From assembly GCF_965641715.1 (NCBI RefSeq), contig NZ_OZ282453.1: a stretch of DNA of 64,000 nt, one strand, 5' to 3'. This stretch comes from Escherichia coli. GTDB taxonomy: Bacteria > Pseudomonadota > Gammaproteobacteria > Enterobacterales > Enterobacteriaceae. Positions 17,891 to 25,761 of the stretch are shown here, one piece after another. A program made the position numbers and the translations under genes. The notes under the pieces are model-generated. The model saw only the letters and a list, made by a program, of their open reading frames with translations, made no database searches and was not told the DNA's origin. Every line of letters begins with the position of its first letter. Positions within the stretch are counted from its first letter, which is position 1.

Positions 17891-20645
17891 TTCCACTGGT
17901 CAGGCCACCCCGCAGCAGGTCTGCTTTGCGGCTGGCGCGTTCAGTGGTTTCACTGATTCTCTGTGCGTGCTCTGCGTCGCGGATGGCGCGCAGCATGTCA
18001 GAAAGCACGGTAACGGGTGTTTTCATGGTGTTCTGGTCCTGCTGAAGTGTGGATGCCAGGCGTGCGGCGGCTTCAGGGTCTGATGCCCCCAGCTGTGCCA
18101 GATAGCTGGCGACCGGGTTATGGCGGATCTCCGTGCTGCTTACGCCATGATTACGGCTCAGGCGCTGCCAGAGCTGCGTGATTCGGCTGTCCGGGCGGGT
18201 ATCCGGTTTGCGTACAATTTCAAATCCCTGCGGTGCAATGATGCTGCCGTCAACGTACAGACTGCCGCCCCGTAACAGGTGCTGCATCTGTTGTTCACCG
18301 ATATGCAGGCCGAGAGATTCAGCAGACTCCCGCCATTCTTTAGCGAGTAATTCGTGGTTATCAGGCAAAGGCCGTGGCTGTTTGCGGCTCTGTGTCCAGC
18401 TCTGCATTTCATCACTGCTGTTTTTTGCCTGTTTGTCACGAAGCGAACGCATCAGCGCCCGGCGTTCGTGCCGTTTCAGTGAGCGCATCCATTCGTTCAC
18501 GTCAACGCCGTCAGGAAGCTGCGGCCACGGTGCTGGCCGTTCTTTCGACTGTTCTGTCCCGCTGTTGCCTGTTTCCTGTACACGGGGACAGTTATTGCCA
18601 CGAGTCCAAGGGGCGGCAGGGCCGCCCTGAAGGTCAAAACCATTTTCGCGGGCGCTGTCTTCCGTTTCCGGTTTACGTCTTACCAGTTTCCAGTTATCCG
18701 GATGCGTGCACACACGGGAGGATTCCCCGATGAGTGGTGACCAGATCCCGTAAATCTGTACGCTCTGTTCGCCGTAATCATTCAGCTCATCTGCGAGGTC
18801 GTAGGCGGTGCGAATCAGGTAGTCTTTGCGTGGAACAAGTACGCCGCCCTGTTTTTCAATGTAGGTGGCAAAACACCCGGCATCGGCGGCAGCGAGTACC
18901 GCATCCATTGCGTCATCTTTCAGTCGTTGCGGGCCTTCCGGGTTGCGTGCCATCTGGCTGGCAAGGCGGCGCAGTTCACGCCACACCTGACGGGAGGGGA
19001 TGCCAAAGAACTGGAACTGGCGGACCCGATGAAGGCGCGCCCAGCCGATGGCGCGCTCCACACTCTCGGCCATTGATTTTCCGGTTTCGTGGTCAACGCG
19101 TGGCTTGCCCGTTTTCGGGTCGATGCCATCCACGGCGCGGCTGTCCAGGTTCTTTCCGATGTAGGTCGCGATATAGCTGGTTGGTGTGCCTTTTGAGCCG
19201 TCGACATACTCCGCCTTAAAGCGCGGAGTAATATCATTGCCCAGCTCGTGGCGGTCTTCCTGAATGGCAATATCGCGGGTGATGGCCACGATGCTGTCGA
19301 TTTCTTCCGGATGAGCAAAGACCATCATATGCCAGTGCACGGTGCCGTCATGGTGAGGCTCCACCGTGCGGATGCCATACCAGCGAAGACCGTCGCGGTT
19401 CAGTTTTTTGCGGACCGCCGCAAAAAACGTGTTAACCAGGTAATCGCTGGAGTCGCGCATGGTGGCCCCGTTCCATTTGGGATTCGGATGACCGTTCTCT
19501 GTTGTGGCGTGGTATTTTGACGGGCAGGTGACAGTCAGAAACACCGCTTTGTCGCCACGGGCTTCGGCCAGAAGTTCCAGCCCCTTCATGGTGGCCATCA
19601 TTTCTGCCTTACGGTGAACCGGGTTACTTACTCCCGCGTAATACACCGTCTCGAGATCAATCGTGAACCCGTCTTCATTTTCCAGCATGAAACTTTTCAG
19701 GAAATCGCGTGTTTTCTCGCGCTGTGCGCGAAACTCGCTTAACGCGTCCTGGCTCAGATAGGGCGATGTTTTTCTGGAAACCAGACAGGCGGCGCGGAGT
19801 TGTTCTTCTCTCCACTCGCAACGTAACAGCCACAGTTTGCGTTTCCACCATTCTGCACAGGTCAGGCGAAGGATTGCGCCCGGCAGCAGCTCCGTGTCCG
19901 GTTCGTTCCTCTGGTCTTTGTCTGTTGTCAGTGCGTCATAATGTGGAGGCATGGCGTGCAGGTGTAACGCCATGCGGGCCAGCATCTGATACGCCTTCAG
20001 CGTTACATCCATGGTCAGTTCGCCATCGGTCGCGCCAAAGCCATCGCAGAGTTTTTCGAAGGTGCTGCTGAACATCGCCGCCGTCATGGTGGCCAGTGTC
20101 TGTATCTGGTGTTTGTTGAGCTGCGGCAGGTAAAGCAAATCGTCCAGGCGTTCGCGTCCGGCAAGGGAGCGATAACCCTGTGTCAGCCAGCGGTGATCGG
20201 TGCGCTCCAGACGTTCGAATATTTTGCGCAGGTTTCCGCGCGCGTAGCGTTCAGCCTGCCAGCTCTTTTTGCCTTTCTGACGATCGGCTTCCTGTTTTTT
20301 GCGCAGGAAGGAGAGGTGGCGAATAAGCGGATCGCGCAGATAGGACGGCAGCAGGCGCAGCGAGGCCATGGCTTCATCCACCGCGCCGCGTGCCTGTTTT
20401 CTGGCATCTCCTGCCAGTGTGATGGTTTTGTCCTGTTTTTCCTGTGCGTCCAGGCTTTTATTAATCAGGTTGCCCAGCGGCGTTGCGGAGAACGCCGCAT
20501 CAGCCATTTCCTGGCGGTGCTCGTTCTCTACCCGGTAGGCATCCAGCCAGGAGGAAAGCGCGGATTCAGGAGCGGGGATCCCCGTTCCTTCACGCCCCAC
20601 TGCGTGGCGCGGTTGTTGCCAGTCCCTGATGTACTCTGCCGTCAT
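17823..20645 (-). CDS. Replication initiation protein (P2 gpA-like rolling-circle endonuclease)
   Basis: 940 aa; P2 A position; HUH-like motif ...HHDGTVHWHMMVF...; translationally coupled to the upstream 121-aa ORF. Confidence 0.65.
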   Translation of the reverse strand: MTAEYIRDWQQPRHAVGREGTGIPAPESALSSWLDAYRVENEHRQEMADAAFSATPLGNLINKSLDAQEKQDKTITLAGDARKQARGAVDEAMASLRLLPSYLRDPLIRHLSFLRKKQEADRQKGKKSWQAERYARGNLRKIFERLERTDHRWLTQGYRSLAGRERLDDLLYLPQLNKHQIQTLATMTAAMFSSTFEKLCDGFGATDGELTMDVTLKAYQMLARMALHLHAMPPHYDALTTDKDQRNEPDTELLPGAILRLTCAEWWKRKLWLLRCEWREEQLRAACLVSRKTSPYLSQDALSEFRAQREKTRDFLKSFMLENEDGFTIDLETVYYAGVSNPVHRKAEMMATMKGLELLAEARGDKAVFLTVTCPSKYHATTENGHPNPKWNGATMRDSSDYLVNTFFAAVRKKLNRDGLRWYGIRTVEPHHDGTVHWHMMVFAHPEEIDSIVAITRDIAIQEDRHELGNDITPRFKAEYVDGSKGTPTSYIATYIGKNLDSRAVDGIDPKTGKPRVDHETGKSMAESVERAIGWARLHRVRQFQFFGIPSRQVWRELRRLASQMARNPEGPQRLKDDAMDAVLAAADAGCFATYIEKQGGVLVPRKDYLIRTAYDLADELNDYGEQSVQIYGIWSPLIGESSRVCTHPDNWKLVRRKPETEDSARENGFDLQGGPAAPWTRGNNCPRVQETGNSGTEQSKERPAPWPQLPDGVDVNEWMRSLKRHERRALMRSLRDKQAKNSSDEMQSWTQSRKQPRPLPDNHELLAKEWRESAESLGLHIGEQQMQHLLRGGSLYVDGSIIAPQGFEIVRKPDTRPDSRITQLWQRLSRNHGVSSTEIRHNPVASYLAQLGASDPEAAARLASTLQQDQNTMKTPVTVLSDMLRAIRDAEHAQRISETTERASRKADLLRGGLTSGNKKQTETGFTNPINEQKTCRDI

Positions 20646-20651
20646 AGTGAT

Positions 20652-21017
20652 TTACTTCGTCATGCCATTCAGGGTGTCGCGGCAGACTGTAGCCAGCCGC
20701 TGAATTTCCAGCACGGTGTCTTCTGTGTCGGCATGGCGATGTGTGATGCGGATGCTGTCGGCAATCACATCGACGATTGCAGAGGATGGGCGCTGGTAAA
20801 TGCCAATAACGGACGGGGTGCCACCTTCAATGCGGTAAAGCCTGTAATTTCCCTCGTGGCTGTCAATCATGTAGCGACCATCAATAACAATCTTTCCGTC
20901 AGCGAGCTGCGGTACAGGCAGGGATTTCAGGTACATGTCATAACGATCACGCACGCGAGCGGCAAGATCACGTTCTGTGTTGAGCAGGTATTCAAGAAAG
21001 TCGTTGGCGAGAATCAT
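20652..21017 (-). CDS. Hypothetical early protein
   Basis: 121-aa ORF with ATG and upstream AGAGGA; ends 7 nt before the A start. Confidence 0.5.
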   Translation of the reverse strand: MILANDFLEYLLNTERDLAARVRDRYDMYLKSLPVPQLADGKIVIDGRYMIDSHEGNYRLYRIEGGTPSVIGIYQRPSSAIVDVIADSIRITHRHADTEDTVLEIQRLATVCRDTLNGMTK

Positions 21018-21089
21018 TGCGGCAATCCTCTTGTTACAGATGTGCGAAGGCCTCCCGCCGCAAGGTGCAGGAAAGGCCCGGAACAGGAG

Positions 21090-21320
21090 TTAATGGAGTT
21101 TGTTTTGCTGCTGGATGAGCTGTTGAAGCTCGTGCAGATCATCCGCCAGATAGCTGAAAACAGAGGCGGAATAAATGTTTGATAGTGCGTGGCTGCGCTC
21201 ATGCAGCATATTGATGTGCATGATTTGCGCGACGCGTGATGCGCGGGAAAGTCTGCGGTTGATTTCAGTCTGGATGTGACGACGCTCCGCGATAGCGCGG
21301 TGTGGTTTGCGGTTTGCCAT
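21090..21320 (-). CDS. Hypothetical basic small protein
   Basis: 76-aa ORF (MANRKPHRAIAERR...); preferred over the overlapping low-complexity 205-aa ORF in another frame. Confidence 0.4.
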   Translation of the reverse strand: MANRKPHRAIAERRHIQTEINRRLSRASRVAQIMHINMLHERSHALSNIYSASVFSYLADDLHELQQLIQQQNKLH

Positions 21321-21642
21321 GGTGTGGCCCCTTGTGTAGTAAGTTGTGAAAACTCACCATCCAGAGCTGCGAAACTGTGGGTGGCGAGACGTACGAGGTT
21401 CGCAGTACCGGCTACACAAGAACCCGGCCCGACCGAAGTCGGCCCCGTACGCCCCGCCATAATTCTGACGCGAAAAAAACGTGGCAATACAGTACGCACA
21501 AAAAAACCGCTGGCGCGGTTGTGCGCTTGTGTAGTCAGCAGGCTGCGAAACCCGGCACCCGTTTTGTGAGGTGCAGCGGAAATGTAACCTGACTGATTGC
21601 GGCATGGCAAGCGGTTTTTTTGTGTGTGCATGTTCTGGTTTC

Positions 21643-21942
21643 TTAGTGGTTCAGAAAAAAATCAAAAACCTTGTCAATGCGTTGCAGCAGCTCTTGCTGT
21701 ATTGCTTCCGGCGTTTCCGGTTCGCCTGGCGCCTCCAACGTCGCGCAGAAATCCTCGATTTCATGACGGAGCGTCAGGCGAATGGCGAGAGGTGTGGTTC
21801 TGGCGTGCTCCAGCTCATCCAGCAGCGCCAGCACAGCAGACGGCGAGAGCATTGCGCGAAACGCCAGTAATTTTTGAGGCGTTGCCATTCGTTGCAGGTC
21901 AGTCGCCAGTTCGCGTAATTCCTGGTGGTTGATGGCGCTCAT
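21643..21942 (-). CDS. Hypothetical early protein
   Basis: 99-aa ORF; start overlaps the stop of the upstream ORF. Confidence 0.5.
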   Translation of the reverse strand: MSAINHQELRELATDLQRMATPQKLLAFRAMLSPSAVLALLDELEHARTTPLAIRLTLRHEIEDFCATLEAPGEPETPEAIQQELLQRIDKVFDFFLNH

Positions 21943-22184
21943 GCTCTGGCTTCCTTCAGTAGCTGGTTAAACATGTTGGTAAGTGGATTGCCGCACCCGA
22001 ACGGCATCGGGTTTATCTGGTAAGAAAAGCGACCGCCTGTTTTGCGCTCTTTTCTTATGACTGAACCGCTGCGCCAGAGTCGGCGTAACTCCGCATTAAT
22101 GGCTGTGGTTGGGGTATTCAGTGCTGCGGCGATTTCTCCACCGCTACACCCCGGATTGGCGGCGATATAGTCCAGAATGGTCAT
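21939..22184 (-). CDS. Hypothetical early protein, possibly a winged-helix DNA binder
   Basis: 81-aa ORF in a coupled chain; weak HTH-like pattern. Confidence 0.45.
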   Translation of the reverse strand: MTILDYIAANPGCSGGEIAAALNTPTTAINAELRRLWRSGSVIRKERKTGGRFSYQINPMPFGCGNPLTNMFNQLLKEARA

Positions 22185-22384
22185 CTGCGTGACTCTTGTA
22201 CCTGTCGGATAAGGTTCACCCGCACCACATTCGTGGCGCAGAAGTAAGTGCCGTCAGTGAGATAGATGTGATGTGCATCCTTTTCTGAACGGTGTTTGTC
22301 GATTGTGGTAATCAGGCGTTCGTCGACTTCGTATTCACGCCCTCTGGAGGTAAAACGAACGACAGGAAAATGCTTAATTGCCAT
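22181..22384 (-). CDS. Hypothetical early protein
   Basis: 67-aa ORF, coupled to the downstream gene. Confidence 0.45.
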   Translation of the reverse strand: MAIKHFPVVRFTSRGREYEVDERLITTIDKHRSEKDAHHIYLTDGTYFCATNVVRVNLIRQVQESRR

Positions 22385-22469
22385 TACGCCTCCTTGGCGT
22401 GTGCGAATACCTCCGCGAATGCGGATTGTTTTACATTTTCTTATTTAATCTGTGGTTTTATTTGCTCTG

Positions 22470-22583
22470 TTATTCGCCAGTGAAAAAGCGTTCAATCTTT
22501 TTTATTGAATGAATAATTCGCATAATCCCAATAGCGCAGGCCACCGAAATAATCAGAACAAGCCATGAGATAAATATACTCAT
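22470..22583 (-). CDS. Unannotated 37-aa hydrophobic peptide (MSIFISWLVLIISVACAIGIMRIIHSIKKIERFFTGE)
   Basis: My own translation; ATG overlaps the stop of the upstream 81-aa ORF (ATGA); one predicted TM helix plus a basic tail; below the track length cutoff. Confidence 0.35.
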   Translation of the reverse strand: MSIFISWLVLIISVACAIGIMRIIHSIKKIERFFTGE

Positions 22584-22825
22584 GCGATATTCCCCAGCTT
22601 ATACGGTTCAATATGTTCCCCGCACTCTGCGGCACAGATCAGCTCGGAAAGTTCGTTAAGTGCATCCAGATCATCAGCGTAAAAAGCCACGTCATACAGA
22701 CTTCGGATTGCTCTGGTCAATGAGTCACGGGCCGCACGTTCAGCATGAGCGCCTGATGCACTTAAGCGAAAATAAAAACGCTCAAGTGCTTTGTTAATGA
22801 GAGTTTTATATTCTTTGCCCATCAC
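22580..22825 (-). CDS. Hypothetical early protein
   Basis: 81-aa track ORF. Confidence 0.45.
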   Translation of the reverse strand: MMGKEYKTLINKALERFYFRLSASGAHAERAARDSLTRAIRSLYDVAFYADDLDALNELSELICAAECGEHIEPYKLGNIA

Positions 22826-22833
22826 AACGCCCT

Positions 22834-23121
22834 TTAATCTGCTTTCTGTATTTCAGCTTCTGAATCCATACAAATAATTTCGATATAGGGTTCATCGCCA
22901 TTAACCTGGCGTGCCTTTTCAGCTTCGCTAATGATTTCTCGTACGGTCTGGTACGGAAGTTCCACAAGCAGTCGCGTGCCGTTCAGATAAACGTAAGTGG
23001 CTTCGTCGGCTCCGTTTTTACCCGCCGGAGTTACTCCGTCAATAGCGGATGCACGTAATAACAGTTCACCGCGAAAATCAATAAAACGGATAAATACACC
23101 TTGTGCATGGTCTTTGGTCAT
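22834..23121 (-). CDS. Hypothetical early protein; start moved to internal ATG 23121
   Basis: Track ORF 22834-23235 overlaps the upstream gene by about 100 nt; the internal ATG removes the overlap. Confidence 0.4.
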   Translation of the reverse strand: MTKDHAQGVFIRFIDFRGELLLRASAIDGVTPAGKNGADEATYVYLNGTRLLVELPYQTVREIISEAEKARQVNGDEPYIEIICMDSEAEIQKAD

Positions 23122-23131
23122 AAAGCACCTG

Positions 23132-23473
23132 TTATAAATCAGCCTGTTTAATAAAACTTTGCCCGCGAAGCAGACGATCAACCGTGCGAAGTGCTTCGTA
23201 TAATGTGAAATCCTGCCCGAACTGATTGTCGCCACTGCTTAGAGCAAAAATGCGGTTTCCGGTAAACGGATTGCGTGGGCATTTGTGGATCACGATTCCA
23301 GCTTTCTCAATCAGCCAGGCATGCTCGCCGATTTGTTTTACTGGGTAGCCATCCGGCGTTGCATGTGTATCACTCAGGCTGTAGCGGATGTTGCTGCGTG
23401 ATGCACTGGTAGCAAAACGGTTAGCGTGGCGTTCTGCACCATTGCGAAAGCGTGAATTACGTTGCTGTTTCAT
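23132..23473 (-). CDS. Hypothetical early protein
   Basis: 113-aa track ORF. Confidence 0.45.
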   Translation of the reverse strand: MKQQRNSRFRNGAERHANRFATSASRSNIRYSLSDTHATPDGYPVKQIGEHAWLIEKAGIVIHKCPRNPFTGNRIFALSSGDNQFGQDFTLYEALRTVDRLLRGQSFIKQADL

Positions 23474-23474
23474 G

Positions 23475-23582
23475 TTAAAGACTCTGTACAGATTTAATTA
23501 TTCCGGCATAGAGGCCGAACTCAAAATATTTGCGATTAAATCGCATCGCATTGTTTTCACGTTTTGCGGACTGCTGGTTCAT
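23475..23582 (-). CDS. Unannotated 35-aa basic ORF (MNQQSAKRENNAMRFNRKYFEFGLYAGIIKSVQSL)
   Basis: My own translation; GGAGG 8 nt upstream of the ATG; its TAA stop lies 1 nt before the ATG of the 113-aa ORF. Confidence 0.3.
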   Translation of the reverse strand: MNQQSAKRENNAMRFNRKYFEFGLYAGIIKSVQSL

Positions 23583-23725
23583 TTTCGTTTGCCTCCGCAC
23601 ATGAGAATTGCGCCGCTTAAGAGGTAACCGAAGTTAATTGATAGTATTACAATTAACATAAGGTCCAATTTGTCCATGCCACACATAATTACCCTCATTG
23701 CAGTAGTTGCGGGTTGTCAGGTTTC

Positions 23726-23932
23726 TCACCCGATAAACCAGATAACAAACGCTATAAACATCGCCCCAATAGCTGCCGGGAAAAGTCCTTTGGTATAAGC
23801 GGCGATATATTCAATGCTGAGTTCAATAAAGCGTTCTTCATGTCCCGTTAACTTGCGAAACAAATAGATCTCTATTACGCCTATCTCAATAAAAACAAGG
23901 GTCAGAATGGCGCTGATGATATGGCTGGTCAT
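23726..23932 (-). CDS. Small membrane protein
   Basis: 68 aa with two hydrophobic segments; immediately downstream of cox. Confidence 0.5.
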   Translation of the reverse strand: MTSHIISAILTLVFIEIGVIEIYLFRKLTGHEERFIELSIEYIAAYTKGLFPAAIGAMFIAFVIWFIG

Positions 23933-23938
23933 TTATGA

Positions 23939-24226
23939 CTAAAGTCCCAGCCACAACAACCATGCGTCGCGGCGTTCTTTCGGTTGCTCAAAAAACGCTT
24001 TGCGCATGCCTTCGTTAAATGCTGGCAGATATACCCAGTTTTCTGATGCACGCGTCTTTACTGAACCTGGTTTCACAAAGTCAATTGTCGGTAGCTTTGC
24101 TGCGTCAATCATGGTTCTGACTGTGGATTCCTTGCGGCCGATCATCTTGGCGAATAGTTGATATGGCACCGCTTCAAGTGGATATGGTGCTACCTGAATG
24201 AACCCCCCAAGCTCTGATTCGCTCAT
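23939..24226 (-). CDS. cox: Cox-like regulator/excisionase
   Basis: 95 aa; PYQLFAKMIGRKESTVRTMID...LPTIDFV...NWVYLPAFNEG...RDAWLLWLGL parallels P2 Cox as I recall it; divergent from C. Confidence 0.8.
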   Translation of the reverse strand: MSESELGGFIQVAPYPLEAVPYQLFAKMIGRKESTVRTMIDAAKLPTIDFVKPGSVKTRASENWVYLPAFNEGMRKAFFEQPKERRDAWLLWLGL

Positions 24227-24339
24227 TGTGGTAATCTCCCTAATTCGTTCGAATGGCTCAAAATGGCTTATATCGGCTTATTTGAGTGTTTTTATGTTTG
24301 TGCCCGATGTGGCATGTTGCGATGGAGGATATGCCCGAT
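24227..24339. promoter_or_regulatory. Lysis-lysogeny switch region (divergent early and repressor promoters) with candidate operators
   Basis: Between cox and C; three GGCT(C/T)A repeats at exact 10-bp spacing (24255, 24265, 24275); two palindromes TGCCCGAT(G/A)TGGCAT (24301-15, 24332-46). Confidence 0.5.
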
Positions 24340-24660
24340 ATGGCATCTTTGTCAAGCATGGGTGAAAAATTTCGCCTGATTCGTGAAGCAGAAGGTATGA
24401 CCCGCCAGGAGTTTGCGGATTGTGTTGGGCTGCCTTATGGGACGGTAACTAACTATGAGGTGAGGGGGAAGCAAGTAACAGAGGGTGCCTTACTTAAGGT
24501 TACGAAACACCCTAAATTTAAGAAGTATGCTTATTGGTTATCAACAGATGAAACGATGCCGGAGGTCGGGCAAATTTCTCCGGCTCTCTCTCTTGATGGT
24601 TCCTGCAATTCGGAGGGAGATCGCGTTTCAACCGAAAAAATCCAAAAATTATCCCGCTGA
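24340..24660 (+). CDS. C-type immunity repressor (HTH); start among in-frame ATGs 24322/24331/24340
   Basis: HTH segment QEFADCVGLPYGTVTNYE and ...KYAYWLSTDETMPEVGQISPAL resemble P2 C as I recall it; same strand as int. Confidence 0.7.
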   Translation: MASLSSMGEKFRLIREAEGMTRQEFADCVGLPYGTVTNYEVRGKQVTEGALLKVTKHPKFKKYAYWLSTDETMPEVGQISPALSLDGSCNSEGDRVSTEKIQKLSR

Positions 24661-24756
24661 GGCCAGAAAACTGGTTAGACCTGCTTTTTGTCTGGTCTGA
24701 TTATTGCTGGAAAGAGGCTGGAGAAATTGTAGAGCGGTTCATTGGAGGGCTTCGTA

Positions 24757-25761
24757 ATGTCGATTAAGAAGCTCGAAGATGGTCGTTATTTGCTGGACAT
24801 CAGGCCGAACGGACGCAAGGGAAAGCGCGTGCGTAAGGTATTTGACAAAAAATCGGTAGCGGTGGCCACTGAACGCTACATCATGGCGAACGCTGAAAAG
24901 CGGGAATATATACAGGGCTACCGTGATCGTCGAACGCTAAATGATTTGCTTGAGTTGTGGTGGATGTATCACGGCCAGCACAGGCGTAAGGCGGAAGAAG
25001 ACCGAAAACAACTGCGCAACATAATCAATGAGCTTGGCGCTGATATGCAGGCTGTGGATCTTGATAAGCTGAAAATTATCGCGTGGCGTTCTCAAAAGAT
25101 AGCTGAAGGATTGAAACCGTCATCTGCTAACAGGTACATGAATCGGTTATCCGGAATGTTTACCGTGCTGAAAAAAATAGGTCTTTGGGATGCAGAACAT
25201 CCAGTAAGGGGAATTTCTATTCTTTATGTATCTCCACGAGAAATGGCGTTCCTGTCACAGAAGGAAGTGGCGCTATTGCTCGATACACTGGAGGGCGACT
25301 ACTGGCGTGTTGCGCTTTTGTGTTTAAGCACAGGGGCGCGCTGGAGTGAAGCTTGTAAGCTTCGTGGTGAACAGATAGTTCATAACCGTGTAACGTTTCT
25401 TGAAACCAAAAATGGCCGGAAGAGAACAGTGCCAATTTCGCAGGCAGTTTGTGAGGCGATCAAAACCAGAGAAACAGGCGGCTTGTTTGAGGTGAAGTAC
25501 CGGGAATTCTGCCTGGCGCTGAAAAGAGTTAAGCCCGACTTACCAAAAGGCCAGGCTGCACATGTGCTGCGGCATACGTTCGCCAGCCATTTTGTGATGA
25601 ACGGAGGAAACATTATTGCGCTTCAGAAGATTCTTGGTCACGCAACCATTCAGCAAACAATGGCATATGCGCATTTTGCACCGGATTACCTGCAGGATGC
25701 GGTGGCCCTTAATCCGCTGAAAGGTGGCGTAAGTGTCCACGCAGTGTCCACGGGGGATTAA
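24757..25761 (+). CDS. int: Tyrosine integrase, P2 type
   Basis: MSIKKLEDGRYLLDIRPNGRKGKRVRKVFDKKS... parallels the P2 Int N-terminus; ATG 24757 preceded by GGAGGG; C-terminal catalytic region HVLRHTFASHFVMNGG...LGH. Confidence 0.9.
   Translation: MSIKKLEDGRYLLDIRPNGRKGKRVRKVFDKKSVAVATERYIMANAEKREYIQGYRDRRTLNDLLELWWMYHGQHRRKAEEDRKQLRNIINELGADMQAVDLDKLKIIAWRSQKIAEGLKPSSANRYMNRLSGMFTVLKKIGLWDAEHPVRGISILYVSPREMAFLSQKEVALLLDTLEGDYWRVALLCLSTGARWSEACKLRGEQIVHNRVTFLETKNGRKRTVPISQAVCEAIKTRETGGLFEVKYREFCLALKRVKPDLPKGQAAHVLRHTFASHFVMNGGNIIALQKILGHATIQQTMAYAHFAPDYLQDAVALNPLKGGVSVHAVSTGD

Follow-up and report, generated by a model that had tools for sequence, protein, structure and literature searches.

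A selectively maintained 37-codon gene overlapping DUF4754 in the putative early operon of P88-like prophages of Escherichia coli

The window analyzed here, a stretch of 64,000 nucleotides from an Escherichia coli contig (NZ_OZ282453.1), contains on its minus strand a 37-codon reading frame (22470..22583) whose 37-aa product is given in the ORF listing of the window as MSIFISWLVLIISVACAIGIMRIIHSIKKIERFFTGE. The gene immediately upstream encodes a full-length DUF4754 protein (PF15946, E=3e-54; phrog_2549), which RefSeq starts at the next ATG, one codon after the GTG given in Table 1, for a length of 80 aa. Across the junction of the two genes the minus strand reads ...GGGGAATATCGCATGAGTATATTT... 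(in a longer read, ...CTGGGGAATATCGCATGAGTATATTTATC...), and the ATG of the peptide gene and the TGA of the DUF4754 gene share three bases in an ATGA junction. The first-pass annotation of this DNA had placed the start of the peptide over the TGA of an 81-aa upstream ORF, and the sequence and the ORF listing bear out both this overlap and the exactness of its coordinates and peptide sequence. The 37-aa ORF is, with very little room for doubt, a real protein-coding gene; it is selectively maintained, already publicly annotated, and without a curated family.

Table 1. Positions, within the window, of the peptide gene and of the surrounding features
Feature	Position	Strand	Details
Candidate Pe-type early promoter (promoter-like TTGACA-18-TATCCT)	24326..24355	-	upstream of cox; consensus match only
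68-aa protein gene	23726-23932	-	directly after cox
Tiny ORF, 39-aa product	23579-23698	-	
Tiny ORF, 41-aa product	23475-23600	-	
Upstream DUF4754 gene	22580..22825	-	81 aa from GTG; TGA at 22582-22580
SD-like GGGGAA	22590..22595	-	within final DUF4754 codons, 6-8 nt 5' of peptide ATG
GTG ORF, 47 aa (rejected)	22492..22635	-	overlaps peptide gene
Peptide CDS	22470..22583	-	ATG 22583-22581, stop TAA 22472-22470; sequence read
Predicted TM segment	22521..22577	-	codons 3-21, IFISWLVLIISVACAIGIM; summed Hessa dG -2.9 kcal/mol, mean KD 2.68
Predicted amphipathic net-positive helix	22482..22520	-	codons 22-34, RIIHSIKKIERFF; from sequence and conservation
A6 and T5 runs	22483..22503	-	A6 22498-22503, T5 22483-22487; sites of one-base losses
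Hairpin TCCGC-NNNN-GCGGA	22412..22425	-	5-bp stem; in spacer 22385-22469, ~45 nt past peptide stop
isrK (Rfam)	21500-21574	-	64 bits
C4 antisense RNA (Rfam)	21377-21464	-	83 bits
"Derepression protein" gene	21090-21320		76 aa
205-aa ORF of some records	21014-21631		across C4/isrK

The element that carries the peptide gene is a P88-like (Xuanwuvirus, Peduoviridae, P2-like) E. coli prophage. The 1.6 kb surrounding the ORF are 100% identical to many E. coli chromosomes, and 93-99.7% identical to the Xuanwuvirus phages P88, P88_4B11, PhiR44_2 and Shae_phiSM (a Citrobacter phage). The corresponding prophage of E. coli MDR_56 adjoins pdxB and carries the integrase and a C-type repressor on one strand and the genes from cox to gpA on the other, in the order cox, 68-aa membrane protein, DUF4761, phrog_3800, DUF4754 and peptide, followed by a 67-aa protein, a MarR-type wHTH protein, an Ead/Ea22-like protein, a derepression protein, a 121-aa protein and a gpA-type replication endonuclease. 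These genes lie on a single strand with short gaps or overlaps, and at least four cistrons of the cox-to-gpA operon precede the peptide gene. The claim that it belongs with an early gene appears sound by synteny, since the gene layout matches that of the early (Pe) operon of P2; a candidate promoter of this type lies upstream of cox (Table 1).

Several neighbors in this operon are themselves very small. The 68-aa protein (WP_000200503.1, hypothetical) contains two hydrophobic stretches, and its gene is kept, with divergent alleles, in 23 loci. Between this gene and DUF4761 lie two more tiny ORFs with a mutual overlap of 4 nt, one encoding a 39-aa TM peptide (35 aa from the second ATG; MRVIMCGMDKLDLMLIVILSINFGYLLSGAILMCGGKRK) and the other a basic peptide of 41 aa (35 from ATG). 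Both are annotated in P88_4B11 and PhiR44_2 and neither in RefSeq MDR_56, and divergent in-frame homologues were found among the fetched loci; given this absence from the MDR_56 annotation and these homologues, the two ORFs are the better candidates for unannotated micro-proteins. Taken with the peptide, the 68-aa protein and the 39-aa TM peptide imply that the early operon holds at least three small membrane proteins. On the other side of the peptide gene, strong Rfam matches to C4 antisense RNA and isrK, accompanied by a weak c4-a1b1 target match, adjoin the "derepression protein" just upstream of it, and the region looks like a C4/anti-repressor module of the P1/P7 or Gifsy type inside a P2-like prophage. 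Some records place across C4 and isrK a 205-aa ORF, whose homologue matches Pfam Phage_ASH.

The peptide gene had been described as unannotated, but public records (RefSeq, P88 and UniRef) already carry it. RefSeq holds a protein 100% identical to the window peptide (WP_000021652.1) and another in O157:H7 (WP_000021655.1), both as "hypothetical protein". Gene product gp07 of phage P88 (YP_009113050.1, "membrane protein") is the same gene, with equal position, length and ATGA overlap with DUF4754 and a single residue difference (I27V), and the gene is also annotated in P88_4B11, PhiR44_2, vB_EcoM-569R5 and Chuche. The exact peptide sequence occurs on at least 999 contigs, under names including "Prophage membrane protein" (UniRef) and "MULTISPECIES: hypothetical protein [Enterobacteriaceae]". 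The prophage region is present in 1384 of 5426 complete E. coli genomes, about a quarter, including O157:H7, O104:H4, UTI89 and ST131 strains, and of 60 evenly sampled genome rows, 58 have a PGAP call of a hypothetical protein next to DUF4754, the remaining two being truncated loci. No peptide match better than E=0.19 was obtained in Pfam, PHROGs, NCBIfam or PADLOC, and nothing significant among PDB sequences. A profile search of 1.84 billion representative proteins returned 17 matches, all of the same peptide family and all from Escherichia, Shigella, Salmonella or Citrobacter records. The window peptide carries the signature of this P88 gp07-like family, which comprises the start M-[SN]-[IV]-[FL]-x-S-W, G19, R/K22-I-I, K28-x-I-E, and an ATGA overlap after DUF4754. 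A literature search found no paper for DUF4754, for the sequence of the peptide or for its accessions, and the names Xuanwuvirus, P88 and CP-933T led to no functional information.

The DUF4754 profile was also scanned against one genome each of 100,044 species, with matches only in E. albertii and in a contaminated MAG, which indicates that the module is narrow and essentially confined to P88-like prophages of Escherichia and close relatives. The MAG locus (L107; JAIJJM010000267.1, "MAG: Collinsella sp.") is a 4-kb contig that contains a DUF4754 gene 99% identical to the E. coli prophage gene and the start of the peptide gene, and is almost certainly a binning contaminant.

Coding potential was assessed across 109 loci, of which ten are annotated phage or E. 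coli records gathered by DNA similarity, 92 were retrieved via DUF4754 rather than via the peptide (80 IMG/VR contigs, 10 places that hold three divergent DUF4754 proteins, and 2 from the species-genome scan), and seven are places that hold three divergent peptide representatives. Stops or indels in related prophages had been suggested as a check on the frame, and the core frame survives it: of 107 loci examined, 105 have the conserved 33 codons intact, and the two others are L009 (a phage record in which DUF4754 too carries several indels) and L025 (one base lost from the TATATTTAT run). In the set of 34 distinct core alleles, the peptide frame is the only one of the six that is open, with a stop in a single allele (Chuche, codon 31), and the remaining five frames, including all three antisense frames as candidates for antisense coding, contain stops in 18-34 of the 34 alleles. 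An ORF that is open in 105 of 107 loci, and is the sole open frame of six, is more than a chance occurrence. The overlapping 47-aa GTG ORF on the same strand was rejected, with stops in nearly all 34 alleles and pN/pS >1.

Synonymous-rate analysis, likewise proposed in the first-pass annotation, revealed purifying selection. The pooled pN/pS is 0.31 in the peptide frame. The mirror antisense frame, which is interrupted by stops in 18 of 34 alleles, has a value of 0.41, and the remaining four frames range over 0.83-1.59, with the two alternative sense frames at 1.12 and 1.41. Variable sites are distributed as 22/9/28 over the first, second and third codon positions (chi-square p=0.008). The most divergent of the close pairs has a dN/dS of 0.15-0.18 at dS ~1; in the comparison with the L096 lineage, the peptide core shows 12.5 synonymous changes over 22 sites and 12.5 non-synonymous changes over 77 sites, for a dN/dS of 0.18. 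In the more distant L100, L103 and L106, the peptide is 57-68% identical to that of the window, whereas DUF4754 is only 26-40% identical, and the ORF, its ATGA overlap and its position are unchanged. Hydrophobic and small residues are kept through 35-40% nucleotide divergence, and independent gene callers predict the gene in divergent loci. The ATGA overlap is found in every locus anchored on DUF4754, even in L025, which is frameshifted, and in L107, a cut contig. In every lineage the ATG is preceded, at a distance of 6-9 nt, by an SD-like purine run (GGGGA, GGGAG, AGAGG, GAGGAG or AAGGGGA), with a duplex dG of -4.2 to -8.5 kcal/mol in all of them despite the differing DUF4754 C-termini that encode it.

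Expression of the peptide as a fusion to DUF4754 by -1 frameshifting was considered and rejected, as no slippery site is conserved between the -1-frame TAA, six codons before the ATG, and the TGA. The sole candidate, G-GGG in CTGGGGAAT, is missing from L096 (CTTGGGAGC), L100 (ACAGAGGTG) and L103. Database "DUF4754" proteins of 103-128 aa (P0001, P0004, P0005, P0010, P0016, P0022, P0033 and P0037) are read-throughs into the non-peptide frame of this region (...ISHEYIYLMACSDYFGGLRHWDYANYSFSKKD). Fused proteins of 103-116 aa likewise follow that frame, which is the one of the 47-aa GTG ORF, or join the peptide frame for no more than their final ~10 residues. Two come from NCBI genomes and most of the others from read assemblies (Logan or ENA), and they were taken as frameshift artefacts, mostly of read assemblies, rather than as true fusions.

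Conservation of the frame applies to the core and does not extend to the last 4-9 residues, which vary by frameshift. One-base losses in the A6 and T5 runs, found in several backgrounds (L005, L011, L019, L026, L032, L044, L052 and L087), replace these residues with an alternative tail of 12-17 residues, yielding 45-aa variants (...KKIERFSLANNRANKTTG, ...KRLNAFSL...). The losses may represent real polymorphism, phase-like slippage or homopolymer sequencing error; such tail variants indicate that the last residues of the peptide are not constrained. Divergent lineages end in ...LFTGE(K/E)RRK at 41 aa, and the peptide of phage Chuche ends at residue 30. Past the stop codon, the spacer contains a hairpin that is present in all 53 distinct spacer alleles with loop variants ATTC, ATTA, ACTC, ACCC, ATCT, AACG and AACA; in its stem, one C-G pair is U-A in 2 of 12 rows and another is a G-U wobble in a third row. 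The hairpin has no sense-strand U-run, while TTGTTTT follows it on the opposite strand, where a scan rates it as terminator-like. The hairpin forms the downstream boundary of the conserved block, beyond which gene content differs by lineage, and it leaves the next SD unsequestered. A role for the peptide as an arrest or leader peptide for the next gene was rejected, since frameshifts alter its tail and the hairpin lies too far beyond the stop.

The first-pass annotation had predicted one TM helix and a basic tail, in agreement with the architecture found here. Two residues without charge precede the predicted TM segment (codons 3-21), whose dG in homologues is -3.3 to -4.1 kcal/mol. The segment is followed by R/K22 and the amphipathic pattern R-I-I-x-x-[IV]-K-x-I-E-x-[FL]-F, in a tail with 4 K/R versus 2 D/E in the window peptide and a net charge of +1 to +5 across the family. 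By the positive-inside rule, the uncharged N-terminus and net-positive tail point to an N-out/C-in topology, and the product is probably a membrane protein of this orientation. An AF2 model of a DUF4754-linker-peptide fusion renders the peptide as one continuous helix (pLDDT 54-81). A cleaved signal peptide or lipoprotein (lipobox [LVI][ASTVI][GAS]C) was rejected, as there is no K/R before the hydrophobic core and residue -3 is Ser; in homologues C16 changes to M, F or S and A15 to V, L or I, so there is no invariant lipobox Cys. Residues M1, S6, W7, L10, G19, I23, I24 and K28 are invariant in the 32 distinct peptides of the fetched loci, with I30 and E31 nearly so. Over twelve sequences chosen for diversity, two of them fragmentary or frameshifted database representatives that differ at I23 and K28, only M1, S6, W7, L10 and I24 are invariant. 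Sequence variability follows a helical period of ~100-105 degrees, a weak signal matched by 223 of 5000 shuffles (p ~0.045), and the conserved face that it implies comprises S6, L10, S13, A17, I20, I24, K28 and E31. This periodicity points, modestly, to a specific helix-helix interface over bulk hydrophobicity.

With its TM helix, net-positive tail and place in the early operon, the peptide fits the loose class of phage small membrane proteins to which it had been likened. It has in common with holins, antiholins and exclusion proteins that it is phage-encoded and, by prediction, embedded in the membrane. Its gene, which has DUF4754 and small early genes as neighbors, is located in the interval from cox to the replication gene and differs from holin and antiholin genes in lying outside and away from the lysis cassette; the product has one TMD and no PHROGs homology to these proteins, no PHROG or Pfam holin family matched it at E<0.1, and it is smaller than any holin known to us. 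T4 Imm and HK97 gp15 are superinfection-exclusion proteins, and exclusion proteins can be early products. Amongst cellular proteins, AcrZ, MgtS, MgrB and Caulobacter SidA are 30-50 aa long, cross the membrane once, with a short end in the periplasm and a charged tail in the cytoplasm, and bind a larger membrane protein through a helix face. The peptide shares with these four its size, its predicted one-TM layout and its putative helix-face mode. Unlike them it is phage-borne, in a lytic early operon and coupled to another gene, and there is no sequence similarity.

Among the explanations weighed for this gene, a membrane-damaging toxin or "kil"-type peptide, which would depolarize or permeabilize the inner membrane like TisB, Hok, Ldr or small viroporins and would result in host arrest or in the death of cells with a de-repressed early operon, is the leading rival, albeit an unlikely one. 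The peptide is short, with a single TM helix and a charged tail; its small residues S6, S13, A17 and G19 could line an oligomer, and it is encoded in a repressed early operon, so a lysogen would tolerate any toxicity. It had been called type I toxin-like, and at 37 aa with one TM helix it does fall within the size range of these toxins (under ~60 aa, one TM helix), resembling Hok/Gef, Ldr, TisB, Ibs, ShoB and Fst in being small, with one hydrophobic helix and a charged end. Beyond this short, hydrophobic shape, however, the likeness is not supported. Pfam toxin families gave no match (best peptide E-values 0.2, for DUF6007 and PET117); an Rfam scan of 20500-25000 at E<=10 returned no Sok/Sib/Rdl/IstR-type RNA, only C4 and isrK ~1 kb downstream in another module; and the plus strand from 21900 to 24700 contains no promoter-like site, although a novel RNA could escape both scans. 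Type I toxins are encoded at autonomous loci, each with a promoter and a structured leader of its own, whereas this gene lies inside an operon and its start overlaps the preceding stop. The conserved amphipathic residues I23, I24, K28, I30 and E31 also suggest more than bulk hydrophobicity. Far less probable still is the notion that the amino acids are irrelevant and that the frame is a chance ORF, or a translated spacer or leader that regulates downstream genes or mRNA stability (e.g., via the hairpin). The frameshift variation of the C-terminal residues and the conserved hairpin after the ORF are in keeping with such a role, but the selection on the protein described above (pN/pS 0.31) and the retention of its hydrophobic and small residues in divergent lineages argue against it, and the hairpin, ~45 nt past the stop, is out of reach of a terminating ribosome and leaves the next SD free.

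A membrane anchor or partner subunit, produced by coupled translation in a fixed ratio and serving to place the DUF4754 bundle at the inner membrane, is a special case of the explanation favored below rather than a full alternative, and is regarded as rather improbable. The peptide gene directly follows DUF4754 with a 4-nt overlap in every intact locus, and this arrangement is invariant in all sampled lineages even where flanks differ; the genes that come after the peptide vary by lineage, with products of 67, 137, 92, 71 and 162 aa. The tail of the peptide is predicted to be cytoplasmic, and DUF4754 is modeled with confidence as a soluble 3-helix bundle (pLDDT 90), whose flexible C-terminus is conserved in part (P73-Y74); a fold search with this model gave no PDB or BFVD match at E<0.5. 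Against the anchor stand the pairing of identical DUF4754 proteins with many peptide variants and the recombinant L101, in which an L100-type peptide follows a DUF4754 that is nearly the same as in L096, the DUF4754 of L100 itself being only ~40% identical. This mosaic implies a recombination point at or near the ATGA junction, indicates that the pair is not strictly co-adapted, and weakens DUF4754 as the specific partner, although a physical partnership of the two products is plausible.

The explanation that accounts best for the whole, which we hold at slightly less than even confidence, is a coupled early inner-membrane peptide that acts via its conserved helix face. The gene would be transcribed early from the rightward lytic operon that runs from cox through gpA, and the ATGA shared with DUF4754 would serve for translation of the peptide through coupling or re-initiation, aided by the SD-like purine run. 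The 19-residue helix (3-21) would span the inner membrane N-out/C-in, with helix 22-34 on or under the cytoplasmic face of the membrane. The conserved face would then mediate helix-helix association with another copy of the peptide, with DUF4754 or with a host inner-membrane protein. Specific association is suggested by the conservation of one helix face along the whole peptide, and a mechanism that depends on a specific partner is put forward more tentatively than the explanation as a whole. The likely role would be host takeover or exclusion in the early lytic phase rather than non-specific membrane damage. A bolder and quite improbable proposal is that DUF4754 and the peptide form an undescribed two-component, membrane-targeted early module, in which a viroporin-like or partner-binding helix recruits the 3-helix bundle to a host inner-membrane machine. 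If so, the division, transport or defense apparatus would be targeted and the cell reprogrammed before replication.

The case of this gene, which passes such tests, indicates that selection analysis of the specific frame is a quick way to validate sub-50-aa ORFs that overlap stop codons in the early operons of phages. The peptide is one of the more widespread uncharacterized micro-proteins of pathogenic E. coli, and if it targets a host membrane machine it would, like other phage early proteins, provide an added tool or target.
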